From the NCBI GenBank assembly GCA_903824495.1, contig CAIJXB010000061.1:13569-77568 (forward strand): a DNA stretch of 64,000 bases. The letters are read 5' to 3'. Made by a program: the position numbers and the translations under genes. A model generated the notes under the pieces. It worked only from the letters and a program-made list of their open reading frames with translations, was not told the origin of the DNA and did no database searches. The first letter of the stretch is position 1. The number at the start of each line of letters is the position of its first letter. The stretch is from an uncultured Chlamydiae bacterium. GTDB taxonomy: Bacteria > Chlamydiota > Chlamydiia > Chlamydiales > Rhabdochlamydiaceae. Below are positions 45,045-51,403 of this stretch, piece by piece.

Positions 45045-45797
45045 ATGCTCAATATCAAGCTTATCCTCTCTTATGACGGCACAGGCCTTCTAGGGTGGCA
45101 AAAAACACCTTTAGGGCCGACCGTAGAAGAGCACCTAGAAACGGCCCTAGCTAAGATCCTTCAAGAAGAGGTTGTCTTACAGGCTGCAAGCAGAACTGAT
45201 GCTGGTGTCCATGCAGAAGGCCAAGTTGTTAATTTCCTTACCAAAAAGACCTCACTCGACTTAGACAAGTTAGTGAAAGGGATCAACTCCCTCCTGCCAA
45301 AACAGATTGTGGTTTTAAGCGCTGAAGTAATGGAAGAAAGCTTTCATCCAACTCTTGATAATCAAGGGAAAGAATACCACTACTTCATTTGCAATGAATC
45401 TATACAAAGGCCCAAAGACAGATTCTACTCCTGGCACTTCCCCTACCCACTAGATGTTTTGAAAATGAAAAGCGCGATTCCTCATTTTATTGGATCTCAC
45501 GATTTTTCAACGTTTTGTAATGAACTGCCCTTATTGAAAAAATCTAAAAAAGATCCCGTTTGCACACTTCATTCGATCGAAATTGAAGCCCTTGAAAATG
45601 GACGGTTTTGTTTTAAGGTAAAGGGGGATCGCTTTTTATTCCGGATGGTTCGCAATCTGATTGGAACGCTGGCGTATGTGGGATGTGGAAAGCTCGAAGC
45701 TGATCAAATTCCTGATCTTTTACAAAGCAAAAAAAGGGCCTTAGCAGGAGTTACGGCTCCTTCGCATGGACTTCATCTTGTAAGGGTATTTTACTAA
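45045..45797 (+). CDS. truA: tRNA pseudouridine(38-40) synthase
   Basis: LSYDGTGLLGWQK and ASRTDAGVHAEGQV, which contains the catalytic Asp motif. Confidence 0.95.
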   Translation: MLNIKLILSYDGTGLLGWQKTPLGPTVEEHLETALAKILQEEVVLQAASRTDAGVHAEGQVVNFLTKKTSLDLDKLVKGINSLLPKQIVVLSAEVMEESFHPTLDNQGKEYHYFICNESIQRPKDRFYSWHFPYPLDVLKMKSAIPHFIGSHDFSTFCNELPLLKKSKKDPVCTLHSIEIEALENGRFCFKVKGDRFLFRMVRNLIGTLAYVGCGKLEADQIPDLLQSKKRALAGVTAPSHGLHLVRVFY

Positions 45798-46333
45798 AAT
45801 TTAGGAATCTCTACATTTCCACGATGTTCTAGAAAAAGAGCTTCTTCCAAGTCGCTTGGCCTACGAAGAGGAGTTGAAGCTTTGCAATGCTTTAAAGCTG
45901 TTAGCAAAATCGACGTAGAAACCATAGCTAAAGAAGCGCCATAGATCAACTTTCGATCAAAATCCGTCTGATCTTGTGTTTGAAAAAAAACAATGCCATA
46001 CATAACTGTTTGAACTACCATAGCAACCATGAAAAATTCATAACTACAAACACCTTTTTCTCTTGGATCTTGGAATTTGACGTTCGAACGCAAAAGCGTA
46101 CTCGCCAACAAAGCGCCGGCCACTGATAGGTTGATGTAGTCATAAACCCTAGGGTTTAACATACCTCCTGTCGCGCCTTTTTTATCAAAGCAAAAAATCG
46201 CCAAGACAGCTTCCCCCACGTTAACAGAAATAATAGAGAGTACTATTTTATGAGTTTTTAATTCTTCCTTACAAGCATTAGAAAAAATCCCTTCATAGCT
46301 CATCCAATTTCTTCTATAGCAGCATTCTAACAT
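45794..46333 (-). CDS. Hypothetical membrane protein, single copy of a roughly 150-aa multi-TM module (paralog of 50234-51403)
   Basis: It shares GVCSYEFFMVAMVVQTVMYGIVFF...LIYGASLAMVSTS with both halves of the 389-aa protein on the other side of the 1253-aa gene. Confidence 0.6.
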   Translation of the reverse strand: MLECCYRRNWMSYEGIFSNACKEELKTHKIVLSIISVNVGEAVLAIFCFDKKGATGGMLNPRVYDYINLSVAGALLASTLLRSNVKFQDPREKGVCSYEFFMVAMVVQTVMYGIVFFQTQDQTDFDRKLIYGASLAMVSTSILLTALKHCKASTPLRRPSDLEEALFLEHRGNVEIPKF

Positions 46334-46527
46334 AGAGACTCCCCTTTAGGAAAAAATCGCATAGATCCTACAAGAGCCAATTATTAATTCAAATCACTTT
46401 TCACCAACTCAAAAAAATATTTTATTAACAATTTACCAAAACAAATAAAAACTATTTGAATATTGATTTTATCGATAATTATAATGTATAATTTAGTGAT
46501 TAATTAATATTAACAGGCAATAAAAAC

Positions 46528-49500: not shown

Positions 49501-50289
49501 AGCGCACTTCTGAGCCTTCCAAGTAAAACTCTTGCTCATTTTGGGTTAATAGACAAAAATGCGCCGCTATCAGCTCTTGAAAAATTTACAGCTGCAACGC
49601 AAAAAGACTACTCTGACTTCATCGACTTCGATCCGTTCTACAAATACCCGTATTTTGCAACAATTGCAAAGATGTGGAAGACCGTCTTTGAATCGCAAGA
49701 TAGCTGGGTTACTAAACTAGGAGACGCTGTATCTGCAATTTCTGCTACTGTTTCTTATGGAGCTGTAGGTCTTGCTTCTGCGTTTATTGATGGAGTGTAT
49801 TACTCCTCAGACGCTAGCTCTGATCTAGAGACTATCCAAGTACTCCTTGATGATCCACATAATAGAATCGATTCTGTCATCGAAAAATGGAACACTTGGA
49901 AAAATTCTGTTGAAAGCGTAAGAGGTGAAAATCCTTATGCAAGATGCGAAATCAAAGTTGTCTACGCAGCTGATGGCAGAAAACTTCTATCAGTTCCCTT
50001 CTACAAACCTTTTACAAAATTTGTAGAGCTTGCAGGAACCCATCCTAGCATGAAGCTTGTCAAAGTTGGTGGACAAGATAAGATCACTTTAGATGTCTGT
50101 TTAGAAGAGGGGCAGGAGATTCCTAAGCTACTTGGATCTGATGAGGCCATCTACGAAATGAACCGCCTTCAAGATAATGAGAGAAAAAGACGCTACAAAA
50201 CCTGTGAAATCGCAATCGACCGCCTCTTGAGCTTCAGTCGTCAACCGGGCGTAAAGAATCAAGTCGAGTATATTCACGTCCATCGTTAG
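46528..50289 (+). CDS. Large membrane-anchored multidomain protein: FAD-binding PCMH-type oxidase domain plus class-I methyltransferase-like domain
   Basis: The N-terminus has paired hydrophobic segments (ALGLIAFPTVLAAELAAESLFL, LALGIIFSPLSILATDACSYLFL). FAD_binding_4-like motifs follow (KISIIGSGMSQGDQ, VEAGATWEEV, VGGSIGIGCHGW, IIDANGE, ELFGCMFGTLGYFGVV), with YDPNNVFSNRH at the end of the oxidase region. Next come an MTase-like segment (LDLVAGLGGFHHTPEDRLEPFIQSIHSKLKPGGVLLVRDH), two more TM-like segments and a roughly 200-aa tail. Confidence 0.8.
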   Translation: MDNTIYRNIYAPSAYLARGIENLLISAKNTDPWSISHTLTCWTAKALGLIAFPTVLAAELAAESLFLTKDLIVYSPKKLSAGMERVSKLALGIIFSPLSILATDACSYLFLQREFSKQEVRPFGVEKVFGTRVREAICYPKTIYAVQKLVTEAVENGQKISIIGSGMSQGDQTIPVSQHEKVIHLKKMNKVEFVEGSDDTLIKVEAGATWEEVLLEANKRGKAVLVKQASDVFSVGGSIGIGCHGWQHNLGSIASTVEELEIIDANGEHKVLSRTKNPELFGCMFGTLGYFGVVVSATLRVTDNVELQEKGVPCKIEDFHETYTREIRNNPDKPLLMGRLNINGNPLQELYINTFEATDNKERVITPDFELEAPRGARIERMFLDAMGHLPTRMYKGLVDFYWNREVKIMTEGEEGETRKDSRNAIMHFGIKSFFQLHRSDLYTQWLQEYFVTPENLPSFLKSLGKTLEENDVRLLNASIRPVPKDNVSILPYAEQDRYAIVISFHQLKSDKEIEKTQKWIQKVQSELIESGDKWYQAYMPYATQEEFEKCYGIETVEKMRDLKAKYDPNNVFSNRHTAKYFDKPPVFKSFFRRVFQTTDEMKELFADFLQTIFFQLDEKKVFAMMEEILKDPAKTDQDIYEELLEKIDSTKKPLSIFSKLKALGVVRRGMGKQVAEHLKGFEPSSFQNYLEVFNRRYANAIQKEAGLSFKKTTAVCDDVGVSLLSKIEVGSFIYPYQKSIKLNDDDCTEPALQVEKTYKPLSDEIENSSLDLVAGLGGFHHTPEDRLEPFIQSIHSKLKPGGVLLVRDHNAESQQVTDIAAVVHAFVNAADGWKLEPEMAEIRNFRGNGYWQDLLESQGFTRIDKGSLVLPKDPTQNGMMMFAKTPQTKEEVEAASLYTKNAVRSPIGSYSTWLEWGNVRFSKQYAEFIQNHHDYEFDFAGHLYQHWTHFYHTMKKSLQTPGVNLKDVLFSDNMAMNLFILFGTTAQLGLSALLSLPSKTLAHFGLIDKNAPLSALEKFTAATQKDYSDFIDFDPFYKYPYFATIAKMWKTVFESQDSWVTKLGDAVSAISATVSYGAVGLASAFIDGVYYSSDASSDLETIQVLLDDPHNRIDSVIEKWNTWKNSVESVRGENPYARCEIKVVYAADGRKLLSVPFYKPFTKFVELAGTHPSMKLVKVGGQDKITLDVCLEEGQEIPKLLGSDEAIYEMNRLQDNERKRRYKTCEIAIDRLLSFSRQPGVKNQVEYIHVHR

Positions 50290-51403
50290 TCATAATAAAA
50301 TGTCCAGAAAGACCATCATTGACCGCTACTGAAACATGGCGGTCATTGGTGCTATAATCAAAGAAAGAATCGATAGCATTGCTGAGTGGTTCATCTTCTG
50401 ATGCACTGACATGCTGCCTAAAAACACCGCCGTAGGAGCTTAAAGTGGCAGTAAGAGCGCCTCCATAGATCGCTGCACTTAAGGGATCTACCTTAGAGGC
50501 GTTTGCTACAAAGATCAAGCTGTATGCGACCATATTTGCAGCCTCGACTGTAGCATAAAACTCATAGCTGCACATCATTCCGGCTTCAAGAGGATTCCTT
50601 AGGGGCTTATTAGGGCGTGCCTGCTGAAGGGAGTGAAGAGTAACCACAAGTCCTACATTGATTATCTCATAAGTTCTAAGCATTAATCCTTCTTGACCAC
50701 TGAAGCATAAAGCAGCAAAAGAAGCAGATCCTATCCCCCATAAGACGGGAATAGATCCTTTGGCTATTTTACAGATCTTGCCATTCATTCCCTCTAATAT
50801 CGAATCTTTCGATTGCACCTCAGGCCTACTTATTACTGTATTGGATGGCACGTCCTCTATGCAATGATAGTCATCTAGCAAATCGATCTCAGCTTCATTC
50901 CTCTGCTCTTTATAACAATTAGCAAAAGACGCTAAAACAGTAGCAAGGGAAGCTCCGTAGATTCCTGCACTTAAGGGATCATTCGTAGAAGAGCTCATTA
51001 CAAAGAAAAAGCTATACGTCACCATCTGCGCAGCCATCAATGCAGCAAAAAACTCATAACTACATATTTTTCCCGATTCAAATAGATTTTTCAGTTTTCC
51101 ATGAGGCCTCGTATACTGAAGAGTGAGAAGTGTGGCGACTAGAGCGGTATTGACCGCCTCATAGGTTCTAGATGTTAGACCTGATATATTGGAGTCTTGA
51201 TCACCAAAACAATACGATCCAAGGTAGCTGGACCCAATGACGATCAGGGTGTACACAGTAACGACTTTACAAGCATTTGCGCGCACGCTGACCATTCTAC
51301 GCCCTTCGAACGAACCTGTCTGAATGCTTGCATTGTCGGCTCCGATATGCCGATTTTCATAACCATTAAGAGTGCTTTGGGATAGAATAGTAACAAGTGA
51401 CAT
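50234..51403 (-). CDS. Hypothetical membrane protein with two tandem copies of the roughly 150-aa module
   Basis: Both halves contain ICSYEFFAALMAAQMVTYSFFFV...SAGIYGASLATVL and MCSYEFYATVEAANMVAYSLIFV...SAAIYGGALTATL. The 3' end overlaps the convergent 1253-aa gene by 56 nt. Confidence 0.62.
   Translation of the reverse strand: MSLVTILSQSTLNGYENRHIGADNASIQTGSFEGRRMVSVRANACKVVTVYTLIVIGSSYLGSYCFGDQDSNISGLTSRTYEAVNTALVATLLTLQYTRPHGKLKNLFESGKICSYEFFAALMAAQMVTYSFFFVMSSSTNDPLSAGIYGASLATVLASFANCYKEQRNEAEIDLLDDYHCIEDVPSNTVISRPEVQSKDSILEGMNGKICKIAKGSIPVLWGIGSASFAALCFSGQEGLMLRTYEIINVGLVVTLHSLQQARPNKPLRNPLEAGMMCSYEFYATVEAANMVAYSLIFVANASKVDPLSAAIYGGALTATLSSYGGVFRQHVSASEDEPLSNAIDSFFDYSTNDRHVSVAVNDGLSGHFIMTNDGREYTRLDSLRPVDD

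Follow-up and report, generated by a model that had tools for sequence, protein, structure and literature searches.

The window analyzed here is a 64,000-nucleotide stretch (positions 13,569 to 77,568 of contig CAIJXB010000061.1, assembly GCA_903824495.1) from an uncultured member of the Rhabdochlamydiaceae, and it carries an intact gene for a 1253-amino acid (aa) protein in which an N-terminal domain, a flavin adenine dinucleotide (FAD) domain, a methyltransferase (MT) fold and a C-terminal domain follow one another (N-FAD-MT-C). The affiliation agrees with rpoB, the window copy being 95-96% identical to that of metagenome-assembled genomes labeled Rhabdochlamydiaceae. The reading that we favor, and hold to be probable though well short of secure, is that this protein represents, in fused form, a conserved enzyme system with four components that occurs in protist-associated intracellular bacteria, that the membrane-protein modules encoded on either side of it are unrelated to that system, and that the system has the function proposed below. 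The enzyme gene and its parts are positioned in the window as follows.

46528-50289, forward strand: fused N-FAD-MT-C enzyme gene, 1253 aa, intact, 41.6% GC
46528-46902, forward strand: N-domain, aa 1-125, two marginally hydrophobic helices, from dN hidden Markov model (HMM) matches and hydropathy
46903-48282, forward strand: VAO/PCMH-type FAD domain with cap, aa 126-585, ending in YDPNNVF
48283-49227, forward strand: helical linker and class-I (Methyltransf_11/YcgJ-like) MT fold, aa 586-900
48595-48621, forward strand: degenerate motif I 'YLEVFNRRY', aa 690-698, replacing the family's 'VEIGYPGR'
49240-50289, forward strand: C-domain, aa 905-1253, with the family motif YIH at its end, encoded by a gene of its own in Legionellales

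Distribution and Gene Layouts of the Enzyme Family

Relatives of the enzyme were sought in several collections. A word-indexed search of 5.8 billion proteins returned only 20, including chlamydial proteins of 1100-1270 aa and Legionella proteins of ~920 aa; one homolog, P0002, is 62% identical. Negatives from such searches need caution, since a word-indexed profile search with the alignment of the flanking module missed the 389-aa window protein P0023, which is present in the collection and supplied two rows of that query alignment. When one genome was scanned for each GTDB species, 99 enzyme relatives emerged, from which 79 loci were kept. These belong to Chlamydiota metagenome-assembled genomes (some labeled Parachlamydiaceae, Simkaniaceae or Waddliaceae), Legionella, Ca. 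Berkiella and uncultured Gammaproteobacteria. Eleven named Legionella species are represented (L. massiliensis, L. steelei, L. waltersii, L. quinlivanii, L. gresilensis, L. brunensis, L. rowbothamii, L. saoudiensis, L. lytica, L. nautarum and L. drozanskii), and L. pneumophila is absent among the 79 kept loci. Viral contigs held no enzyme relatives, and a search of metagenome contigs yielded only stand-alone FAD homologs of ~500 aa from high-GC bacteria (L084-L123).

When four segment HMMs (N, aa 1-125; FAD, aa 126-585; MT, aa 586-900; C, aa 905-1253) were scanned over all open reading frames (ORFs) of the loci, the same four parts were found in three arrangements. The fused N-FAD-MT-C layout occurs in the window and in 15 loci, while 22 chlamydial loci carry adjacent N-FAD and MT-C genes. 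In the remaining layout, found at 32 Legionella, Berkiella or gammaproteobacterial loci, a gene of ~370 aa for the C part lies directly upstream of an N-FAD-MT gene, abutting or overlapping it, as in L. massiliensis, where the C gene (7941-9059) is followed by a 933-aa N-FAD-MT gene (9059-11860). Many of the chlamydial N-FAD and MT-C pairs overlap by 4 nt, as is typical of ATGA overlaps (from coordinate arithmetic, the bases themselves not having been read), which argues for truly separate genes as opposed to sequencing errors. The occurrence of the four parts in permuted and fused layouts provides, by the Rosetta-stone argument, strong comparative evidence that N, FAD, MT and C would all function as one unit.

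The initial annotation knew of no characterized protein with such an architecture, and the same was found here in Pfam, NCBIfam, the PDB and the searchable literature. The N-FAD-MT-C system thus appears to be conserved yet uncharacterized. Undescribed in these sources are the four-part architecture, its three layouts, a C-domain that lacks known relatives and the clade-wide loss of a cofactor loop reported below; the catalytic folds are familiar.

Individual loci showed further peculiarities. At seven chlamydial loci (L005-L008, L036, L039 and L077) the N-FAD and MT-C ORFs share a frame and are separated by one stop codon, with the next start within a few codons, so that stop-codon read-through giving a fused protein is conceivable there; in the rest of the split loci the two ORFs differ in frame and mostly show the 4-nt overlap. 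The N-FAD-MT gene of Legionella sp. PATHC038 (L076, 9086-13217) is broken, just after the MT region begins, by ~1.3 kb that could represent an inserted mobile element, or the gene may be a pseudogene, and the FAD domains of L. nautarum and L. drozanskii (L070 and L073) carry an insertion of ~20-40 aa. In L. massiliensis (L041), the one genome in which the flanking proteins were inspected for such features, the operon is flanked on one side by a 550-aa protein (5791-7443) whose long, polar N-terminal region appears helical and which also has a hydrophobic region rich in Gly and Ala and a strongly acidic tail at the C-terminus, and on the other by a 225-aa protein (12074-12751) with a hydrophobic hairpin; both look effector-like. 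An 'ABC' neighbor cluster was rejected, as it mixed ABC-type ATPases of different sizes at varying distances.

The C-Domain Is a Single Domain Without Detectable Relatives

The C-terminal part had been described in the initial annotation as two transmembrane-like segments followed by an unassigned tail of ~200 aa. It proved instead to be a single conserved domain of ~350 aa and the conserved partner of the enzyme, built of about six long helices (two hydrophobic) and then an alpha/beta part. Modeled alone, it gave a predicted local distance difference test score (pLDDT) of 87.3 and a predicted template modeling score (pTM) of 0.85. A Foldseek search of this model against the PDB returned nothing at E < 0.001, with only a weak likeness to ACT/HMA-like ferredoxin folds, and neither the C-domain nor the Legionella C protein matched a Pfam or NCBIfam family. 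We propose that the C-domain would be an obligatory anchoring or regulatory subunit. Among the listed Legionella and Berkiella C-subunits (L040-L083), most start with MGK[FY] (e.g., L041, 7941-9059); of the exceptions, two have a start called a few codons farther upstream and the other two have another beginning. Every listed C-subunit ends in IH[DN]F, and position 6 is only sometimes compatible with N-myristoylation.

The N-Domain Is a Feature of the Enzyme Family

The two N-domain helices span aa 49-67 and 89-111 and are separated by ~20 aa. The segment HMM showed the N-domain to be homologous in all family members, those of Legionella and Berkiella included, and no Pfam or NCBIfam family was matched by it. 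Since the domain is shared with Legionella, it is presumably a feature of the enzyme family and not a chlamydial Inc domain, and the 'Inc-like' description given earlier to this paired hydrophobic N-terminus was not sustained. Kyte-Doolittle maxima in the 1253-aa protein reach only 1.6-1.75 (aa 49-67, 89-111 and 979-997), and some of the segments contain Asp or Glu; the N-domain of the Legionella homologs reaches 2.0-2.2. An association of the 1253-aa protein with the membrane surface, or as a hairpin, is plausible from these profiles.

The Flavin Domain Lacks the Histidine of Covalent FAD Attachment

The assignment of a PCMH/VAO-type FAD domain ending in YDPNNVF was borne out by three matches above the curated Pfam cut-offs, namely FAD_binding_4 (PF01565) at aa 136-271 (E 1e-19, 70.9 bits against a cut-off of 26.4) and, in the cap, ALO at aa 440-580 (27.9 > 23.1) and BBE at aa 549-577 (23.0 > 20.6). 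The window protein keeps every family-invariant residue of the FAD domain, and the invariant motifs include QAS, CHGW, WLQEYF and NASxR. We take the invariant QAS to lie at or next to the position of the gatekeeper Ala113 of GalLDH, a residue reportedly described by Leferink et al.

At the position of the covalent-FAD His the window loop reads GSGMSQG and the family consensus GAGMSQG, with no His; the aligned loop of GalLDH reads GSGLSPN. The absence of His from the loop, as in GalLDH, points to FAD being bound non-covalently. The label 'oxidase' used in the initial annotation goes further than this, since the dehydrogenases GalLDH and DprE1 likewise lack the covalent-FAD His, and oxidase and dehydrogenase cannot be told apart from sequence. 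The nearest matches of the flavin domain in NCBIfam and PDB sequence searches were sugar-1,4-lactone oxidoreductases, DprE1, cytokinin dehydrogenases and xylitol oxidase. All NCBIfam scores were far under the equivalog cut-offs: the domain is not a member of TIGR01678 (sugar 1,4-lactone oxidase; 88.1 vs. 396.8 bits) or of NF053785 (DprE1; 56.8 vs. 500 bits).

The nearest stand-alone relatives of the window FAD domain are the FAD_binding_4 proteins of the high-GC bacteria, a family of their own, which are 26-31% identical to it over their full length and 26-38% in the best segments. In the six of these whose N-termini were read, a hydrophobic stretch was accompanied by both 'DDASR(L/M)N' and 'AGARHSMGGH' or close variants. 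The gene context of the stand-alone loci was uninformative.

Motif I of the Methyltransferase Fold Is Degenerate in One Clade

The initial annotation had recognized a class-I MT-like core with a degenerate motif I, and both parts of that description were upheld. An AlphaFold model of aa 590-1253 had a mean pLDDT of 89.2 and a pTM of 0.84, and Foldseek matched it in the PDB to class-I S-adenosylmethionine (SAM) methyltransferases only (E ~1e-6, probability 1.0), which have a Rossmann-like seven-strand fold; Coq5 stood at the top, and MmcR, DnrK/RdmB, the CurJ C-MT, PsoF, ASMT, METTL6 and an FPP methyltransferase were among the others. A profile of the MT region also matched B. subtilis YcgJ and BH2331, which share with it the signature 'D..TC...HH...LLVDH'. 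At the level of Pfam the window MT region stays under all MT cut-offs (the best being Methyltransf_23, 20.7 < 27), while the L. massiliensis homolog passes (Methyltransf_11, 30.7 > 21.2).

The glycine-rich form of motif I typical of class-I enzymes (E/DxGxGxG after beta1) is missing from the window protein. Compared with relatives that carry 'VEIGYPGR', the window motif I has lost both glycines, one having been deleted, which shortens the loop by one residue, and the other replaced by Arg. The form 'VEIGYPGR' after beta1 is found in Legionellales and one chlamydial clade, and the form 'E[IV]-[YF][DNF]RRY' in the window and 22 aligned chlamydial loci. The proteins with the degenerate loop keep the beta2 Asp, GLHH, RDH[DN], VHxFVNA, ExRxF and DPTxN; in the window protein the acidic residue at the end of beta2, which contacts the ribose in this class, is kept as D718/D719 in 'TAVCDD', aligned with the D/E of most relatives. 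In a neighbor-joining (NJ) tree of the FAD domain, which was rooted with the stand-alone FAD homologs and which, having no support values, is suggestive, the degenerate-loop proteins and the window protein formed one clade, of which one basal member keeps the loop. The degenerate motif I appears to be a clade-wide, selected state and not a sign of a decaying gene. The MT fold of the window clade is most likely a substrate-binding, scaffold or altered-ligand domain, with flavin chemistry as the catalytic activity that would survive. In NCBIfam the Legionella MT showed weak similarity (E ~1e-3) to RquA, Mtf2 and phthiotriol methyltransferase, and these similarities, along with Coq5 as top structural match, offer no more than a hint of lipidic substrates.

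The Flanking Modules Form a Separate Orphan Family

The three ORFs of the locus, their convergent overlap and the AT-rich spacer all lie where the initial annotation had placed them. The features around the enzyme gene are as follows.

45794-46333, reverse strand: single-module membrane protein, 179 aa, four helices, orphan family outside the enzyme system
46334-46527: divergent AT-rich spacer upstream of the enzyme gene, 194 nt, 23% GC
50234-51403, reverse strand: two-tandem-module protein, 389 aa, last 18 codons overprinted on the conserved 3' end of the enzyme gene
50234-50289: convergent overlap between the enzyme gene and the 389-aa gene, 56 nt

The proposed paralogy of the modules proved sound, pairwise similarity being far above chance: the 179-aa protein matched the two halves of the 389-aa protein with E values of 3e-16 and 8e-13, and these halves matched each other with E 9e-35 at 42% identity. 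CSYEF, V..Y...F and IYG..L do not vary among the three aligned copies, and the helices of the 179-aa module lie at aa 30-48/63-81 and 99-117/129-147. When the module profile was run exhaustively with HMMER against 1.84 billion representatives, there were four true matches, namely the two proteins of the window plus P0022 and P0028, and a single false positive of low complexity, so that among these representatives the family is known from three closely related sources only. A tblastn search of 83 loci (79 from the enzyme scan) with both module proteins gave matches in L004 only, and no module gene lies within 8 kb of any other enzyme-family locus. None was found in JGI metagenome contigs, a collection that apparently does not include the L004 sample and is therefore uninformative on this point.

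L004 is a 3964-bp JGI contig of a close relative, whose MAP and TruA are 97 and 93% identical to those of the window (synonymous divergence, dS, 0.6-0.9). Its gene order is map, a 389-aa two-module gene (61% identical), a module gene of ~181 aa and truA. DNA alignment showed that the ~3.9 kb of the window between 46334 and 50233 correspond to 32 nt in L004. The antisense strand at the end of the L004 389-aa gene reads ...QPTVKKHIEYIHVHH* (...IEYIHVHH*), matching the C-terminus of the window enzyme, ...QPGVKNQVEYIHVHR*, and the terminal YIH motif is family-wide in the enzyme. This YIH relic argues that the common ancestor had the enzyme gene and that the L004 lineage deleted it, leaving the module genes intact; the enzyme-within-module arrangement would accordingly be ancestral to the window and L004 lineages. 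Two tandem module genes are also present on L124 (731 bp), the third source.

In the comparison of the window with L004, the ratio of nonsynonymous to synonymous divergence (dN/dS) was 0.30 and 0.29 for the modules; map and truA gave 0.026 and 0.07. As genes the modules are genuine and under constraint, but the rate at which their proteins evolve is about tenfold that of the housekeeping neighbors. Taken together, the modules appear to be a separate, lineage-restricted and fast-evolving tandem orphan family, with the enzyme gene sitting antisense inside the array. The 179-aa protein begins MLECCYRRN (46307-46333, reverse strand) and its L004 ortholog MPKCCKRN (3090-3120), in each case Cys-Cys followed by basic residues. 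These N-termini resemble eukaryotic dual-palmitoylation signals such as that of GAP-43 (MLCCMRR), and by this analogy the Cys-Cys N-terminus may fit a host-exposed membrane protein.

Composition and Surroundings of the Locus

The GC content of the enzyme gene (41.6%) is close to that of the window (41.5%) as against 23% in the spacer, and it therefore gives no compositional sign of recent foreign origin. The spacer contains two sigma-70-like matches (10/12) at 46456-46492, and in the promoter and terminator scan of the spacer region the counts, promoter-like ones included, did not exceed chance. Rfam detected three tRNAs only in the window, all away from the enzyme locus. Adjoining map, a 246-aa ORF (52419-53159, reverse strand) encodes a protein with a hydrophobic N-terminal half of several helix-like segments and a C-terminal half that is a long, Glu/Lys-rich coiled coil, giving it an Inc-like look overall; it is kept in L004 with 84% identity and a dN/dS of 0.15.

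Proposed Function and Alternative Explanations

In the function that we propose, the N-terminal pair of moderately hydrophobic helices would hold the complex at the membrane surface, where the flavin domain would dehydrogenate a small molecule, hydrophobic or lipid-linked, at a hydroxyl (or amine). The ancestral MT, of Methyltransf_11/YcgJ/Coq5-like type, would methylate the same molecule, and the C-domain would act as an obligate anchoring or regulatory subunit of the complex. In the window clade the MT fold would probably be non-catalytic or bind an altered ligand, with the flavin activity remaining. Several observations weigh against this proposal. The marginally hydrophobic helices of the 1253-aa protein could sit buried in a soluble fold, and neighbor clustering of 82 family loci and 40 stand-alone FAD loci found the C protein alone to recur and gave no pointer to a pathway. 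Even the Legionella proteins match Pfam MT models over motifs II-III only. With the beta2 Asp and other motifs kept, the MT of the window clade could still bind SAM or a related nucleotide and may not be a pseudo-methyltransferase. From this last point it is a short step to an alternative that we consider possible but doubtful, namely that the window MT continues to work as a SAM-dependent methyltransferase whose cofactor loop is atypical, which would make the protein a true bifunctional dehydrogenase/methyltransferase. Such an enzyme would account for the retention of D718/D719, GLHH, RDH[DN], VHxFVNA, ExRxF and DPTxN across the degenerate-loop clade in a fold modeled with high confidence; it is harder to reconcile with the replacement of both loop glycines in the window and 22 aligned chlamydial loci, and with a window protein under every Pfam MT cut-off where the Legionella protein passes.

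It was also considered whether the enzyme might act outside the bacterium, as a secreted, host-directed effector (by type III secretion in Chlamydiae and Dot/Icm in Legionellales) that would insert in the vacuole or a host membrane by means of its moderately hydrophobic helices, there to oxidize or methylate a lipid of the host (a sterol, an inositol lipid or an isoprenoid, for example). The role in host lipid or sterol modification that the initial annotation raised is speculative. The family was found only in protist intracellular bacteria of two unrelated phyla; its distribution is patchy and accessory, with no L. pneumophila among the kept loci and the gene deleted in a close relative; and in the NJ tree the Legionellales are nested within the other chlamydial clade, which, support values being absent, suggests horizontal transfer in the niche. 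The Legionella N-FAD-MT proteins moreover have highly variable polar tails of 50-115 aa after the MT domain, and marginal helix hydrophobicity would, as we see it, suit secreted membrane proteins. Against this, the Legionella C subunit has no variable tail and ends in the conserved, structured IH[DN]F, and a scan of the 300 nt preceding each of the 32 Legionella-type operons revealed no PmrA-type TTAAT-N6-TTAAT, an element of one known effector regulon. Niche-restricted genes can also act in the bacterium itself, as nucleotide transporters do. We therefore regard an effector role as somewhat unlikely, and its more elaborate version, a horizontally exchanged, host-directed machine for tailoring membrane lipids, common to Chlamydiota and Legionellales and active on the pathogen vacuole (oxidizing a protist sterol, isoprenoid or inositol lipid and, in members with the glycine loop, methylating it), with the C-domain as a new membrane-targeting or regulatory fold, as improbable. 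Least credible, and in our judgment very improbable, is the self-contained accessory locus of the initial annotation, in which the flanking module proteins would serve the enzyme as dedicated membrane partners. In its favor are physical adjacency, the 56-nt overlap, the common AT-rich divergent spacer and an arrangement ancestral to the window and L004 lineages. However, no modules flank the enzyme at the other 79 family loci, the module pair stayed intact and under purifying selection (omega 0.3) after the enzyme was deleted in L004, a third contig also has modules in a tandem pair, and the enzyme's conserved partner is its own C-domain.

Under the favored reading of a four-component system, a conserved multi-domain machinery spans two phyla of protist-associated intracellular bacteria, and its cultivable Legionella carriers make genetics and biochemistry feasible, with the pattern of fusion and fission showing which proteins to co-express. 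The system includes a confidently modeled domain of ~350 aa that has no known sequence or structural relatives, and the loss of the SAM loop in one clade is a natural experiment. For annotation, labels such as 'putative DprE1', which the L. massiliensis homolog bears in one source, or 'FAD/FMN-containing dehydrogenase' are inadequate for the enzyme family; the upstream C gene of Legionella belongs to one unit with the N-FAD-MT gene; and the window's flanking membrane genes should be annotated as an independent fast-evolving orphan family, possibly of host-interface proteins.

Comparison With Known Systems

GalLDH (8qnr) and xylitol oxidase (2vfr), of PF04030, share with the window flavin domain the two-domain VAO fold of FAD_binding_4 and an ALO-type cap, and the aldonolactone oxidoreductases and alditol oxidase are its best sequence matches (TIGR01678, 88 bits; GalLDH, E 5e-12). 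GalLDH is also alike in having no covalent His in the GxGxS loop. Aldonolactone oxidoreductases carry a C-terminal HWxK-type motif, in place of which the window protein has 'W/YYxxYxP', more like the 'YLP.Y' of CKX and DprE1; it further differs from them by the added N-terminal hydrophobic pair and the fused MT and C domains. DprE1 (decaprenylphosphoryl-ribose 2'-oxidase; 4aut) is likewise a VAO enzyme with non-covalent FAD (match E 1e-11), and it acts at the membrane on a lipid-linked sugar. Unlike the DprE1 setting, no DprE2 or arabinan genes were found near the enzyme gene, and we know of no arabinan pathway in the host organisms of the family.

Chlamydial Inc proteins resemble the 1253-aa protein in the paired hydrophobic segments near its N-terminus, and the flanking module proteins in their hairpin-like helix pairs and fast evolution. 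The N-domain of the 1253-aa protein is unlike them in being shared with Legionella and in having marginally hydrophobic helices ~20 residues apart, and no family-level similarity to any known Inc was detected. The UbiE-COQ5/Methyltransf_11 types (YcgJ, 1xxl; BH2331, 1vl5; yeast Coq5, 4obw) have the same fold as the MT region (Foldseek E 1e-6) and the signature 'D(L/I)(V/I)TC..(G/A).HH(F/I)...LLVDH'. Unlike these enzymes, the MT region has a divergent N-terminal half, in which a long insertion separates beta2 from beta4; it has lost motif I in the window clade and is embedded in a multidomain protein.

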